From: Chlamydiales bacterium
GTDB taxonomy: Bacteria > Chlamydiota > Chlamydiia > Chlamydiales > JAAKFR01
Reading direction: 5' to 3'
NCBI GenBank assembly: GCA_049281295.1
Contig: JBAPRV010000187.1
Span: forward strand, 1-45,759
Length of the DNA stretch: 45,759 bases
The position numbers and the translations under genes were made by a program. Of the stretch, positions 13,151 to 17,706 are shown piece after piece (the first letter of the stretch is position 1; every line of letters starts with the position of its first letter). Below the pieces are notes generated by a model. It made no database searches and was not told the DNA's origin. It saw nothing but the letters and a program-made list of their open reading frames with translations.

Positions 13151-13508
13151 TTTTTACTAAAGAAGTAACATTATCTAAATTATCGCTTATTAAAACCTTA
13201 AAAACAAGATCAATAAGGTTTTCAAAACACCCCTTGGGAGCATATATTACCCAACTCCTTTACATGAAAGCTAATCCATTTTCCATGGGGAAAGGTGGAT
13301 ATCATATAGGGCGGTTATTCCTCCAGATTGCAATTATTTTATTGTCAGCCATTTGTATTGGAAGGATAACTATGCAGTCTGCTTTAAAATTCAACTTGGC
13401 TCCCCTCTCTTTCTGAGCCAAGAAAACTTAAAAGGCCTTAAAAATTGCATAATGATTTAATTTGTGATACATAATCAACAATAACTATTAACTCATCTAT
13501 TAAGTAAT

Positions 13509-14828
13509 TTGAAAAAAAATGAAACCAAAAAAGGCTATTATCTTTATCAATCTCCCTATGTGACAAACTGTTGCGTCATCGCTCTTGTCGCATTCATTTT
13601 AGGAGCATGGATATGGGCGGCGAAACATTCATGGGGTATTGAACCCATTTCAAAAGGAATTGGCTCTGGAGTTGGCATTCTTGGATATACACTTTTGGCA
13701 TTTTCTCTCTTTTTATCCTCGCGTTGGAAAAAATTAGAGGATTGGATTGGTGGATTGGACCGGGTCTACCACCTGCATCATAAGGTAGGTCTTTGGGGGT
13801 TTTACTTGCTATTGGCTCATCCCTGGATAAATGCCATGAAATGGCTTCCCCAGCGATTAGACCATTTTTTTCTGTTTATTTTTCCCTTTCATCATAGGGT
13901 TTCAGTTAACTTAGGATCGTATGCCTTCTGGCTGATGCTTATCATCATTGTAATAACCATCTTCAAATTACTGCCTTACGATAAATGGAAGCTAACGCAC
14001 AAGTTTATGGCTCTTGTATTTGTATTAGCTTCTTTGCATTTTTTACTATCTTCCAGGCGATTTAATCCCTCCTTTTTATCCCTGACCCCTCTTTTTATAC
14101 CCATGTGCCTGGGTCTTTTTGGAATTGGCTATAAACAAATATGGATGCCCTTCTTTTTTCATTATTCGAAATATGTGGTTACAGATGCTCAAAAAATCAA
14201 CGATAATACCATGATGGTTACACTTAAACCTAAGGAGCGGCCTCTAAATTTTATCCCTGGGCAATATGCTTTTTTTTCCTTTAGAGAGAACCTGTCAAAA
14301 GAACAACACCCTTTTACTACTTGTCATTTTCAAAATTCATCTATTTTCATTTTAGCGAAAGTTCGAGGAGATTTTACCCGTTCTCTCTATGAAAAACTCT
14401 GTAAGGGGACATCTGTACTTCTTGAGGGGCCATATGGGAGATTTGATTACAGATGCTGCATAGAAAACCAAATCTGGCTTGCAGGGGGTATTGGCATTGT
14501 TCCCTTTCTTGCTTGGAGCCAGTCATTTGAGAAATGGCCAGGAAAAGTTGACCTCTTTTATTGCGTGCATCGGGAAGTTGATGTACTTTTCCTAAATGAA
14601 CTCCAATCCTTGCAAAAGAAAAAACCTCTTTTTAATTTACATATTTACTGCACTGAAAATAAACAACGCTTAACAATAGAAAACATAGTAGGCGTAGTAA
14701 GCGATTTGAATAAAAGAGACATTTTTATGTGTGGACCGAAGAGACTAACAAGCCACTTCTTAAGAGAGTTTCAAAACAAAGGAATAAAAAGAGCGAATAT
14801 CCATTTTGAAGATTTTGAATTCTTTTAA
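13509..14828 (+). CDS. NOX/FRE-type flavocytochrome (ferric-reductase TM domain fused to an FAD/NAD(P)H-binding FNR-like domain)
   Basis: Two His pairs with 13-residue spacing in TM helices (HKVGLWGFYLLLAH and HKFMALVFVLASLH). FAD motif HPFT, NAD(P)H motif GGIGIVPF, C-terminal CGP motif. The only in-frame start before TM1 is TTG 13509, and GTG at about 13560 is an alternative. Confidence 0.8.
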   Translation: MKKNETKKGYYLYQSPYVTNCCVIALVAFILGAWIWAAKHSWGIEPISKGIGSGVGILGYTLLAFSLFLSSRWKKLEDWIGGLDRVYHLHHKVGLWGFYLLLAHPWINAMKWLPQRLDHFFLFIFPFHHRVSVNLGSYAFWLMLIIIVITIFKLLPYDKWKLTHKFMALVFVLASLHFLLSSRRFNPSFLSLTPLFIPMCLGLFGIGYKQIWMPFFFHYSKYVVTDAQKINDNTMMVTLKPKERPLNFIPGQYAFFSFRENLSKEQHPFTTCHFQNSSIFILAKVRGDFTRSLYEKLCKGTSVLLEGPYGRFDYRCCIENQIWLAGGIGIVPFLAWSQSFEKWPGKVDLFYCVHREVDVLFLNELQSLQKKKPLFNLHIYCTENKQRLTIENIVGVVSDLNKRDIFMCGPKRLTSHFLREFQNKGIKRANIHFEDFEFF

Positions 14829-14958
14829 CTTATAAAGAGAACATGCTTATAAATATTTTAATCAAAAATAAACAGGACAAAAGTACTTAAAACTATATTC
14901 TGTATAAATATTTTCTCTTTTCGACAGTAATTAAAAACTTATTCGATTATTATAGGAA

Positions 14959-15543
14959 TTAATAGGATTTAAGATTCTGGCAATGAGTCCCTTTGAAAAA
15001 GTTATACCACTCGTTACATTTATCCTCAGTATGGATACCTAATATTTTCAGAATTTCTGCAGCAAATTCAAGACTTCCTAACCCGGAAGCGGTGATAATA
15101 TTATTATCTGTAACAGCGAGTTGTTCTAAATACTGATCGCCACGATAATGTTCTTTGGAATAGTTCTGAAGGTATTCTTTTACATTACTAGTATGCTTGC
15201 AATCATTCAATAACCCTGCTCTTGCAAGTGCGATTGTTGCTCCACAGATAGCAGCGATTGTTTTTTTTTTATTATTAAATTTTTGCAGAATCTCAGAGAT
15301 TTCATCAGCAAGCTCCTTACTATGCCAACGTTTACCTCCAGGAATAATCAAAAGATCTGCTTCGTCTACATCAACCTTTGCTAGCACAGTGTGAGGCACT
15401 ACGTTTAGCCCACCCATGGATTCTACCGCATCTGGACTAAAACCCACGGTGACGATGTCCACTCCATTATTTTTTAATTCTGGAAGAATATAACCTATTT
15501 CCCAGTCAGAAAACCCATCGAATACAAGACAATACACCTTCAT
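14959..15543 (-). CDS. DJ-1/PfpI family protein (class I glutamine amidotransferase-like)
   Basis: Nucleophile-elbow motif IAAICGATIALARAGLL, an upstream LLIPGG block, and the ~190-aa size typical of the family. Confidence 0.85.
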   Translation of the reverse strand: MKVYCLVFDGFSDWEIGYILPELKNNGVDIVTVGFSPDAVESMGGLNVVPHTVLAKVDVDEADLLIIPGGKRWHSKELADEISEILQKFNNKKKTIAAICGATIALARAGLLNDCKHTSNVKEYLQNYSKEHYRGDQYLEQLAVTDNNIITASGLGSLEFAAEILKILGIHTEDKCNEWYNFFKGTHCQNLKSY

Positions 15544-15594
15544 AATTTTATAAACCTTTATAACTTAAAGGCGAAACACAATCAAAGAGATATT

Positions 15595-15777
15595 TTATAA
15601 TTGATTGTAATTCTTGTATAGTCGATTCAATAAAGCATTTGTCGACTGTCGTATATGGTGTTTCCGATCTACCCAAAAACCTTTGGCTTGTTTCAATACG
15701 CGTTTTCGACGTCGACGCAAGGAGATGAAAGAGCAGGTGCTCATCATGATGTGCGCAAGTTTCCTTATTTTTGGCAC
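15595..15777 (-). pseudogene. Truncated duplicate of the 5' part of rplT (L20)
   Basis: 15633-15718 aligns with 17962-18048 inside the intact rplT, including a 46-nt perfect core (15673-15718 matching 18003-18048). Translated, SLRRRRKRVLKQAKGFWVDRKHHIRQSTNALLN matches ASRRRRKRVLKQAKGFWGDRKNHIRQSTNAVMK. The rest of the 60-aa ORF is unrelated to L20. Confidence 0.8.
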
Positions 15778-15817
15778 GACATACCCATGAGATAAGGATT
15801 CTAAAGTGGATTTTTAA

Positions 15818-16183
15818 TTAGGCACGTCCGAAAGTCACATCGGGTCCCGCAATTTTTCTCCTCATGAGGCTGCTGATTCCTTCTGCAATGCCTTGAAGGA
15901 CTGCTTGCAAGAGCACTTGAGCAGCAAGTTGACTCATGCCAGCAATGCCGACGCCAAGATGGTCTTGAAATGATAAAAAGTACTCTTGAGCCGTCTTATT
16001 CTTTGTGTCTATCCAGGCGGTAATGGATGCTATGGATGCTCCTCCTGCAACCACAGCAAGAACGCCCAGCGCAACTGTAGCAGTTGTTGAAGCAACAACC
16101 GCAGCGCCAACAGCAGATCCAGCTGTTATAATAGCTAGTCCAGTTGCTGTCGCAAAAGCGGCTTGATTTGCGCCAATTTCCAT
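15818..16183 (-). CDS. Inc-like membrane protein (bilobed hydrophobic domain), hypothetical
   Basis: Residues ~14-57 (GLAIITAGSAVGAAVVASTTATVALGVLAVVAGGASIASITAWI) form two adjacent hydrophobic lobes with a short polar turn. The 5' region (16184-16330) is very AT-rich and the gene body is Ala/Gly-rich. Confidence 0.6.
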   Translation of the reverse strand: MEIGANQAAFATATGLAIITAGSAVGAAVVASTTATVALGVLAVVAGGASIASITAWIDTKNKTAQEYFLSFQDHLGVGIAGMSQLAAQVLLQAVLQGIAEGISSLMRRKIAGPDVTFGRA

Positions 16184-16422
16184 AATAAAACTCCTATTTT
16201 TTAATATAGTAGGTTAATTTTTAAATTTAATATACTATAGTTAATTATTAGTTATAACGAAAGCAAGTTTATGAAATTCAATAAAAAATAGAATAAATAA
16301 AAAATATTAAGATCTTATAAAGATTTTCACAGTTTTGAAAGGGGTAGTGCGCCAAGCGTACTCGAGGAGAGATCGCTCAAAGGTGTTGCCAAAAAAACGG
16401 AAGAGGAGGACATTGAATACTT

Positions 16423-16447
16423 AAAAGGCCTCCGGGGGAGGGCTTTT
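16423..16447 (-). terminator. Rho-independent terminator ending the pheS-tRNA-Ser transcription unit
   Basis: On the minus strand the sequence AAAAGCCCTCCCCCGGAGGCCTTTT is followed by AAGTATT. It forms a GC-rich stem (CCTCC/GGAGG plus flanking pairs) with A/T-run arms. Confidence 0.6.
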
Positions 16448-16588
16448 AAGAGAAATGTCCGAGAGTGAGCTTGAGCGCGCCGAGGCGAGCCTTTCGGGCT
16501 GGATCTTGCTGCCTACCCGGCATCGCTCGACCCTTCTCATCCCCCACGCGAGTGAAACTGTTCACTCGCTCTCTTCTCTCACTTCGTT

Positions 16589-16673
16589 CGGAAGAGGAGG
16601 GATTCGAACCCCCGGAACCTTGCGGTTCTCCTGTTTTCAAGACAGGTGCAATAGGCCACTCTGCCACTCTTCC
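16589..16673 (-). tRNA. tRNA-Ser (anticodon UGA)
   Basis: Cloverleaf read by hand: acceptor GGAAGAG/CTCTTCC, anticodon arm CCTGT-CTTGAAA-ACAGG, long variable arm GAACCGCAAGGTTCC, T-arm GGGGGTTCGAATCCCTC. CCA is not encoded. Confidence 0.95.
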
Positions 16674-16680
16674 AATTAAA

Positions 16681-17706
16681 CTAAAATTGCTGTAGAAAAT
16701 GTAAATTGTTATCCCAAAAAAGACGTATGTCGGGGATGTCGTATTTCAGTAAAGCAAGCCTCTCTATGCCAATGGCCCACGCATACCCTGTATATTTTTC
16801 GGGATCAATCCCTCCAGATTTTAAAACTTCAGGATGTACCATTCCGGCTCCCGCTACCTCAAGCCACCCCGTCTGCTTGCAAATAGAGCACCCCTTCCCC
16901 TCGCAAAGAAAGCAATGAATATCCACTTCCATGCCCGGCTCGACAAAGGGAAAATAACTAGGTCTGAAACGCATCTTCACCTCTTCTTGGAAAAATTTTG
17001 AAAAAAACTCTTCCAAAGTCGCTAATAGATCGGCAAAGGTCGGGTTGTCATCGATATAAAGCGCCTCTATTTGGTGAAAAACCACGTGGGAACGCGCGGA
17101 AATATCCTCCTTGCGATAACATTTTCCAGGCGAAATAATGCGAATAGGAGGAGGACACGATTCCATCACCCTTACTTGAGTGTTTGAGGTATGAGTGCGA
17201 AGCAAAATGTCAGGTGTGATGTAAAAGGTGTCGTGCATGTCGCGGGCTGGATGATCCTTTGCAAAATTCAATGCTTCGAAATTATAATAATCAGTCTCAA
17301 TATCAGGGCCATACTGCACTGAAAAGCCCATCCCAACTAAAATATCTATCGCTTCATCAAGGGTTCTAAGGGTGACATGCGTTCTTCCAAGAAAACGTTG
17401 ACGCCCAGGTAGGCTCACATCCAGCTTCTCACGCTCAAGCCGCTTTTCAAGCTCTTGTTTTTCAAAGTCAGCCAAAGCTCGCTCAAAATTATCGGAAATT
17501 GTGGTTTTAAGGTCGTTGATCAATTTCCCTATCTGAGGACGGCTTTCAGGAGGACACTCTTTTAATAACAACATGAGCCTCTGAACACTCCCCTTCTTCC
17601 CCAGATACTTGACCTTTAAAGCTTCAACGTGCTTGGCTTCTCGACTCTGTTGAAGTTCTGAGATCGCCTGCTCTTTGAGGTTTTGAACTGCGCTCTCAAT
17701 TTCCAT
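16681..17706 (-). CDS. pheS: Phenylalanine--tRNA ligase alpha subunit
   Basis: Class II aaRS motifs ([30 protein letters not shown]...[11 protein letters not shown]) and position directly downstream of rplT. Confidence 0.97.

Follow-up and report, generated by a model that had tools for sequence, protein, structure and literature searches.

What does it mean when the last bases of a tRNA gene recur a short distance downstream of that gene? It is routine to interpret such a direct repeat of a tRNA 3′ end as an attachment (att) site of a genomic island. The question arises for a 45,759-nt stretch of DNA from a Chlamydiales bacterium (the window; contig JBAPRV010000187.1 of assembly GCA_049281295.1), in which the tail of a tRNA-Ser(UGA) gene is repeated on the far side of a GC-rich segment. 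An earlier note on this DNA, made from the letters alone, had offered two explanations for the segment, namely the remnant of an excised or decayed integrative element or a structured RNA of ~140 nt. Comparison with relatives points to a third answer: 16340-16588 (minus strand) is probably a rearranged, chimeric and partly decayed copy of a module of the tRNA-linked-repeat (TLR) type.

TLRs have been known from Escherichia coli since 1978, where they comprise RtT RNA (rttR, RF00391) behind tyrT and tyrV as well as RrA, RrB and RrF behind 5S rRNA, and they are generally regarded as an enterobacterial curiosity. We describe below the repeat and the fold of the segment, the modules that follow tRNA genes in related bacteria, and the anatomy of the window's copy. 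Our own numbers for loci (L), genomes (G), genera (g) and families (f) are given in brackets where they are needed.

A copy of the tRNA tail closes a strongly folded segment

The tRNA-Ser(UGA) gene lies at 16589-16673 on the minus strand (ARAGORN; Rfam RF00005, 57.6 bits). It starts a few bases 3′ of pheS (16681-17706; PheS by Pfam), and CCA is not encoded in it. The 12-mer at its end, CGGAAGAGGAGG, has two exact copies in the window, one at the tRNA-Ser 3′ end itself (16589-16600) and one at 16398-16409. When one mismatch is allowed, three matches are found against 0.18 expected, a number reached in 0 of 100 shuffles. The bases beyond the 12-mer read ACATTGAA in one copy and GATTCGAA in the other, and the similarity extends over ~21 nt if one indel is admitted. 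The repeat derives from the tRNA tail and begins at the T-loop.

GC content amounts to 0.56-0.64 across 16400-16600, compared to 0.14-0.24 in the adjoining spacer. The minus strand of 16390-16588 folds with -83 kcal/mol (z = -4.46; 0 of 200 shuffles as good), and the plus strand of the same interval reaches z = -3.47. The earlier description of the locus is borne out in these respects: both exact copies of the 12-nt repeat, their extension across one indel with the flanking bases as described, the GC-rich segment between them and a perfect 9-bp hairpin at 16548-16569 are all present, and the folding that it suggested as a check yields an unusually stable structure.

Rfam at its gathering threshold matched tRNA genes alone across the whole window and returned nothing for the GC-rich segment. 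In E-value mode, applied to the region and to module-bearing loci of relatives, it gave beyond tRNA only weak sub-threshold matches, most of which (sX4, Plastid-psbI-rps4, mascRNA) overlap the tRNA gene. ARAGORN and RF00005 reported the true tRNA alone and no canonical tRNA or tRNA pseudogene in the module. Protein coding was considered and rejected: the open reading frames (ORFs) at 16446-16667 (minus) and at 16455-16679 and 16465-16695 (both plus) overlap the tRNA gene, the one ORF tested is without a Pfam match, and the lengths of modules differ by non-multiples of three.

Three recurring pieces follow tRNA genes in relatives

Relatives were searched with the tRNA and its trailer as query, and the loci were then read. 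The sequence past the tRNA matches other genera of the same family piecewise and in varying combinations, and three pieces recur across these loci: module A, element B and trailer C. An intact module A of ~95-140 nt directly follows a tRNA gene and has the same orientation. It opens with a strand resembling the acceptor 5′ strand of that tRNA, followed by P2, a hairpin of 9-10 bp, and by a T-stem 5′ strand that leads into AUUCGAA or AUGAGAA. Next comes a conserved inner domain, in which P4, bearing a GAGCGA...GCGAG motif, is joined by a small P5, and the module closes with (C)GAAUCC and the T-stem 3′ and acceptor 3′ strands, a copy of the last 17-20 nt of the tRNA. In intact relatives this 17-20-nt tail (GAATCC, T-stem 3′ strand, acceptor 3′ strand and discriminator) is identical to that of the neighbouring tRNA. 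As judged from sequence and predicted pairing, an intact module A is a mimic of the upper half of the tRNA that it follows, with the single hairpin P2 standing in for the D, anticodon and variable arms.

A reduced form was seen at two loci of one genome (L038:25-84 and L063:18-77; G006), where a 60-nt mini-module without inner domain consists of the acceptor-like strand, P2 and an uninterrupted T-arm-like hairpin, GAGGGATTCGAAATTCCTC. It represents either a deletion between the GAA boxes or a form predating insertion of the inner domain. At another locus (L021:1455-1490, minus), the tail copy of an A module abuts its own inverted copy, forming the perfect palindrome TCCCTCCTCTTCCGAAGGAAGAGGAGGGA.

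Element B measures ~100 nt and comprises a long hairpin preceded by one with a CTTCGG or CTACGG cap, and trailer C is a long hairpin that opens with a T-run directly after the tRNA end. A conserved trailer C of ~90 nt follows tRNA-Ser genes of different anticodons (L023, L025, L027, L050, L051, L018 and window 16340-16397; alignment A6); its apex, CUCCUCGGCCGUGCUACUCGCACUGCC, is conserved and its stem covaries. An arrangement of CCUCGG, hairpin and CUCUC is common to B and C.

Linkage to tRNA genes was inspected at ~45 loci. Wherever upstream sequence is available at these loci, the module lies directly behind a tRNA gene and is co-oriented with it; three loci are uninformative because a contig edge or a further module copy precedes the module (L197, L205, L208), and one orphan module fragment (L078) has no tRNA nearby. 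The preceding tRNA is tRNA-Ser with anticodon UGA, CGA, GCU or GGA, and in other families tRNA-Tyr, tRNA-Leu or tRNA-Trp. The closing strands track this tRNA, reading GGAGGAG...CUCCUCC behind Ser-GGA, GGAAAGA...UCUUUCC behind Ser-GCU, GGGGGCG...CGCCCCC behind Tyr and GCCCGGA...UCCGAGC behind Leu, while P2 and the inner domain remain recognisable behind all these tRNAs. The module core with re-tailored closing strands was seen behind tRNA-Tyr(GUA), tRNA-Leu(UAA) and tRNA-Trp(CCA) at L196:1383-1597, L198:1380-1699, L204:1340-1596 and L201:1501-1745. Tandem arrays of 2-4 units occur at nine loci (L028, L032, L049, L050, L065, L111, L194, L203, L206), often with an intrinsic terminator between units.

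One candidate role, in which module A would imitate tRNA-Ser before seryl-tRNA synthetase (SerRS) with P2 as the long variable arm, was dropped as a general explanation because modules also stand behind tRNA-Tyr, tRNA-Leu and tRNA-Trp. Synthetase mimicry specific to tRNA-Ser is therefore unlikely as the general role. A literature search for chlamydial tRNA-like RNAs or SerRS mimics returned nothing relevant.

Helices are kept by compensatory changes

The helices P1-P5 of module A were drawn by hand on nine copies, and a covariance model (R1) was built from that alignment. In the hand-drawn structure 91.5% of the cells are paired, compared to 45-48% after a shift of the 3′ partners by 1-2 columns and 35-45% after a shift by 3, and double changes are found at 7 pairs. 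R1 recovered 37 copies of module A. In alignment A5 (35 distinct copies), which was fitted to the model so that its pair counts are inflated, 91% of the cells are paired, against 47-50% when slid by 1-2 columns and 31-47% at 3; double changes occur at 38 of 40 pairs, and P2 is paired to 100% with double changes at all 8 of its pairs. On the tRNA strand of module A, G.U pairs outnumber A.C pairs by 97 to 33, an excess that points to RNA, or at least to one specific strand.

The two other pieces show the same pattern. For element B, RNAalifold on an unfitted MAFFT alignment (A3) predicted 28 pairs, 12 of which carry double changes, and its hairpin H1 carries C(UUCG)G or C(UACG)G as cap, tetraloops of the UNCG type that is typical of RNA. 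In trailer C (alignment A6, with seven intact hairpins from relatives), double changes were found at 12 of 23 pairs, the window's row being without a proper 3′ arm. Conservation, which the earlier note had proposed to check, is thus evident in that the helices of modules A and B are kept with compensatory changes across genera.

These comparisons bear directly on the integration scar. In that reading, the two repeats would be attL and attR of an integrative element that had entered tRNA-Ser and was imperfectly excised or has decayed to ~180 bp. The direct repeat does consist of a tRNA 3′ end, and the downstream interval 13151-16588 carries unrelated, accessory-looking genes. However, the flanking ORFs (MscS, a NOX-like reductase, DJ-1/PfpI, an orphan 121-aa protein and PheS) include no integrase; the two tyrosine recombinases (PF00589) in the window's genome (G000, 94.7% complete) lie on other contigs (C54 and C64) and are presumably XerC/XerD-like. 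Moreover, no further copy of the tRNA tail bounds a larger island within the window, which leaves the accessory genes without a second boundary. Module by module, what lies between the repeats has homologues among conserved elements that follow tRNA genes in many genera and families, and those elements show compensatory changes, as decaying foreign DNA would not. The remnant of an integrative element envisaged in the earlier note is hence abandoned here, and we regard an att scar as highly improbable.

Searches of increasing breadth found modules in 14 of 29 genomes of family f1 (BLAST-type query), in 13 of 300 genomes of the order from four families (R1) and in 55 of 401 genomes of the phylum from five families (f1, f5, f8, f16 and f31; general model R3, ~95 matches in all), with no R3 match in the small-genome family f35. 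The relatives from the pheS scan are uncultured metagenome-assembled genomes throughout. Within the family, modules are 78-88% identical at the DNA level whereas PheS is ~70% identical, which implies either constraint or recent exchange.

This breadth also has to be set against the idea that module A is merely a decaying tandem duplicate of tRNA-Ser, a functionless pseudo-tRNA, with the remainder of the segment due to chance. Some genomes do carry two full tandem tRNA-Ser genes at this position (L064 and L096), a partial tRNA-Ser duplicate lies behind a module at L210, and the 5′ strand of P2, GCGAGUGAA, resembles the D-arm region of the tRNA, GCAGAGUGG. Yet P2, P4 and P5, which have no counterpart in a tRNA, have been kept in five families with compensatory changes, and the same core behind tRNA-Tyr, tRNA-Leu and tRNA-Trp would not result from independent decay. 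We therefore consider a pseudo-tRNA improbable.

The window carries a fusion of module A and element B

Read on the minus strand, to which all features in this section belong, the window's copy consists of the 5′ two-thirds of module A (16577-16496), a junction hairpin (16500-16488), element B (16487-16408), the tail copy (16409-16398) and a U7 run with a remnant of trailer C (16397-~16340). Module A begins 11 nt after tRNA-Ser on the same strand. Its P1 5′ strand, AGAAGAG (16571-16577), is like the acceptor 5′ strand GGAAGAG of the tRNA and pairs with CUCUUC of the tail copy (16399-16404) in the minimum-free-energy fold. In relatives this position matches the acceptor strand of the neighbouring tRNA, and the P1 columns of alignment A5 are paired to 85%. 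P2 (16548-16569) is the perfect 9-bp hairpin mentioned above, GCGAGUGAA-CAGU-UUCACUCGC, seen in both sequence and fold. Alignment to R1 and R3 identifies the T-stem 5′ strand (U)GGGGG followed by AUGAGAA at 16534-16546 as the 5′ half of a split T-arm, whose 3′ partner, (C)GAAUCCCUC, is absent from the window's module A. The inner domain (16496-16533; homologous to L004, L012 and L111) contains P4, GGGUC-GAGCGA-UGCC-GGGUA-GGCA-GCAAG-AUCC, and the first bases of P5 (AGCCC), at which point module A ends abruptly. R3 matches 16460-16578 with 38.6 bits (E 9e-6).

The junction hairpin AGCC-CGAAA-GGCU (16488-16500) marks the fusion of A and B and is specific to this copy, as it is not found at the same place in relatives. 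Element B (16408-16487) comprises a CCUCGG box, H1 (16464-16481), in which 3 of 7 pairs are broken, and the long H2/H3 hairpin (16408-16460); R2 matches it at 16396-16498 with 86.4 bits (E 2e-19). The copy of the tRNA-Ser 3′ end, CCUCCUCUUCCG (16398-16409), provides the P1 3′ strand and the discriminator base, and the exact 12-mer is found only here and in the tRNA. It is followed by the U7 run (16391-16397) and the remnant of trailer hairpin C (U7 run and hairpin together 16340-16397; alignment A6), of which the 5′ arm and the apex are kept and the 3′ arm is degenerate. The locus is a single fused unit and, according to the R2 and R3 searches, the sole copy in its genome.

This anatomy revises three elements of the earlier note. 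Its helix GAGCG..GCCGGG / CTCGGC..CGCTC and the cap AGCC-CGAAA-GGCT both appear in the minimum-free-energy fold but are copy-specific and bridge two modules; since the GAGCG/CGCTC helix connects A with B, it exists in this chimera alone. The putative terminator hairpin at 16423-16447 forms the tip of the long hairpin of element B, whose stem covaries in relatives that have no U-run; the terminator scan has an entry at 16441-16429 with a tail, CCUUUUAAGU, of just four U. The structured RNA, finally, is retained insofar as the segment is made of conserved, folded modules, but it is a chimeric copy from a family with partly copy-specific helices rather than one unique ~140-nt RNA.

Copies are frequently broken, nested or dispersed

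Apart from the window's copy, truncated copies (L002, L039) and a further chimera (the third unit of L021) were found, and nested inverted-repeat insertions interrupt copies at L004, L025 and L032. With such turnover, and with a single, chimeric copy in the window's genome, the module family, though structurally constrained, is dispensable at any given locus. The nested insertions within A modules have terminal inverted repeats of their own (such as GACCCAGGAGGC...GCCTGGGTC and AACCCCCATTTCTCACC...GGTGAGAAATGGGGGTT; L025:1587-1860, L032:1890-2060, L083:3720-3880, L022:1010-1140 and, at L004, between the two A copies). In genome G020, the same insertion of ~130 nt sits in the modules at the Ser-UGA and Ser-GGA loci; the 5′ halves of these two modules differ, and their common stretch starts at the TTCGAA box. 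At L210:1405-1800, tRNA-Ser(UGA) and a module are followed by a 5′-degenerate second tRNA-Ser(UGA), still called by ARAGORN, and by one more tail copy; the locus represents an intermediate stage between the duplication of a tRNA and the formation of a module.

Element B is single-copy and located behind tRNA-Ser in most genomes (a single R2 copy in G000, G001, G002, G009, G017 and G022). In genus g16 it is dispersed in multiple copies and both orientations. R2 counts reach at least 12 in G015 and at least 13 in G020, and 6 copies were found in G024. BLAST-type matches gave ~5 copies in G041, where B is nested in a ~250-nt element with long terminal inverted repeats, GCCATGTGCAACTTTTTTGCCACTCAGGAGCG ... 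CGCTCCTGAGTGGCAAAAAAGTTGCACATGGC (L034:1395-1655, L052, L043, L054). This B-bearing element could be a miniature inverted-repeat transposable element (MITE) or a multicopy structured RNA.

Much of this behaviour would be expected if the modules were small DNA elements, mobile or duplicative but non-autonomous, with tRNA 3′ ends as their target. Their hairpins would then serve at the DNA level or for their own propagation, the tail copy would be a target duplication or far att site, arrays would grow by repeated insertion or accretion in the manner of cis-mobilizable elements (CIMEs), and the host would have no use for them. The near-identical units within tandem arrays, the patchy occurrence across genomes and tRNA-Ser isoacceptor loci, and the truncated, chimeric and nested copies agree with this, as do the insertion shared by the two G020 tRNA-Ser loci with its common stretch from the TTCGAA box and the dispersal of B in both orientations in g16. 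The repeat also begins in the T-loop, where integrases that target tRNA genes classically cross over. On the other hand, units of ~100-150 bp are too small for any gene, ORF checks next to modules, at the loci where they were made, revealed no integrase or transposase, and only two tyrosine recombinases are encoded in the window's genome. Simple insertion leaves it unexplained that the internal 5′ strand matches the neighbouring tRNA, RNA is indicated by the excess of G.U on the tRNA strand and by the UNCG tetraloops, and the core motifs are kept across families, perhaps as far as E. coli. We take mobile DNA to be the main rival explanation of the modules but not a likely one; a mixture of processed-RNA and selfish-element explanations may also apply.

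Possible expression and reshaping of the modules

If the segment is a TLR-type module, its structure would act as RNA, on the strand of the tRNA. The module is likely to be transcribed together with pheS and tRNA-Ser, because the promoter scan revealed no promoter-like site between tRNA-Ser and the module. Its RNA would fold into an acceptor/T minihelix to which P2 and the inner domain are attached, and the enzymes that process tRNA ends might release it, as they do for RtT and RrA/B/F of E. coli. At the DNA level, the repeated tRNA tails may drive unequal recombination through which arrays expand, contract, homogenise and are sometimes scrambled. Such recombination at the tails would account for the arrays, the identity of tail and tRNA and rearrangements such as the A/B fusion, the window's version of which we picture as one scrambling product. 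For the internal 5′ strands to match the host tRNA, selection for pairing would be required in addition.

Several observations weigh against the TLR-type reading and keep our confidence in it moderate. The modules are spread patchily, as illustrated by the 14 of 29 genomes in one family and by the lack of R3 matches in family f35. At many loci the tRNA is separated from the first module by an intrinsic terminator, so that expression there would need read-through. In the window, which has the sole copy of its genome, the T-arm 3′ strand is missing and H1 has decayed; truncation, chimerism or interruption also affects many other copies, as would be expected of DNA that is dispensable or selfish. 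The pair counts from alignment A5 lean towards structure owing to the fitting. Searches in both directions between Chlamydiota and E. coli also fell short: RF00391 (cut-off 45 bits) had no match in the window (E <=10), in nine module-bearing loci (E <=0.1) or in L195 (E <=10); R3 reached 9.3 bits (E 0.13) on the E. coli tyrT region and had no match on the whole K-12 chromosome; and nhmmer with RtT units against 524 kb of chlamydial loci gave one match with E 6.5.

Comparison with known systems

E. coli has 22 TLRs at ten loci. They are gene-less, share an operon with a tRNA or rRNA gene that directly precedes them, occur as 1-5 tandem units and repeat the 3′ end of that gene in their last 18-19 bp (PMC8144298). 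RtT and RrA/B/F are cotranscribed with the gene before them and yield a discrete RNA on processing, and no function is known for TLRs except that RrA/B/F bind Hfq and CsrA (PMC8144298). The chlamydial modules likewise stand directly behind a tRNA on the same strand, end in a copy of its 3′ end and form tandem units. By definition and architecture they are of the TLR type, outside RF00391. They differ from the E. coli TLRs in having in addition a full 7-nt acceptor 5′ strand and, between acceptor and T strands, the 9-10-bp P2. The window's tail copy, moreover, is exact over 12 nt rather than 18-19 bp, and its host belongs to the Chlamydiota rather than the Enterobacterales.

The resemblance extends to the interior of the units. 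RF00391 detects four units in the K-12 tyrT region (133-137 bits), and in these an internal GGGGAAGG pairs with the tail copy CCUUCCCC, as P1/P3 do in the chlamydial modules. Motifs occur in the same order in E. coli RtT and the chlamydial modules: GGAUGAGAAG; CGAGCG(A/C)CAGCGAGA (14/15); GAGCG(A/U)UGCC..GGCA(G/A)CGA (20/23); CCCGAAGGG; and (U/G)AAUCC. The AUGAGAA motif of the window's module A is common to E. coli RtT as well. A chained local alignment from the T-stem 5′ to the 3′ strand beats 400 of 400 dinucleotide shuffles in 4 of 7 modules (z ~4). On these sequence likenesses, homology of the chlamydial modules with E. coli RtT is no more than plausible, as the profile searches do not link the two sets.

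A bolder proposal, which we put forward only as a rather doubtful one, is that TLR-type modules from E. coli RtT to the Chlamydiota form a single ancient, cross-phylum class of 'shadow tRNA' RNA. Such RNAs would take on the acceptor/T-stem identity of the preceding tRNA around a conserved core (AUGAGAA and the GAGCGA...GCGAG tandem-GA motif), and this core would be the ligand of some universal enzyme that handles tRNAs; RNase P, RNase E, the CCA-adding enzyme and the cognate synthetase are candidates. If this were true, the modules would be made and matured like tRNAs and would report on, or buffer, the processing or charging of the cognate tRNA. As a variant, the core may direct templated copying of the tail of the upstream gene, thereby giving rise to a new kind of gene-less, self-propagating element.

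Att repeats and CIME arrays share with the chlamydial modules the direct repeat of a tRNA 3′ end from the T-loop onwards and tandem accretion separated by the repeated site. The modules are set apart from att elements by the absence of an integrase, a size of ~100-150 bp, covarying multi-helix cores and internal strands complementary to the tail copy. Other RNAs, including the tRNA-like domain (TLD) of tmRNA, YrlA and mascRNA, likewise hold an acceptor/T-arm minihelix without anticodon arm inside a larger RNA. The Rfam search yielded no match to tmRNA or YrlA, and mascRNA weakly matched the tRNA gene itself (14.5 bits). To our knowledge, no other tRNA-like RNA copies the sequence of whichever tRNA precedes it. 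Element B, for its part, is like repetitive extragenic palindromic sequences and bacterial interspersed mosaic elements (REP/BIME), enterobacterial repetitive intergenic consensus sequences (ERIC) and Correia-type MITEs in being a GC-rich hairpin of ~100 nt that is dispersed in multiple copies and both orientations in some genomes. It differs from them in that no sequence relation was found and that in most genomes it is single-copy behind tRNA-Ser.

For annotation, the comparison with att sites means that reading this tRNA 3′-end repeat as one would be wrong at the present locus. In relation to the E. coli prototype, the TLR-type family described here is new for the Chlamydiota and structurally richer. 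It turns a single-species oddity into a comparative data set of tens of diverged copies with a consensus structure and conserved motifs, through which it becomes visible that the closing strands track the upstream tRNA, be it tRNA-Ser, tRNA-Tyr, tRNA-Leu or tRNA-Trp.

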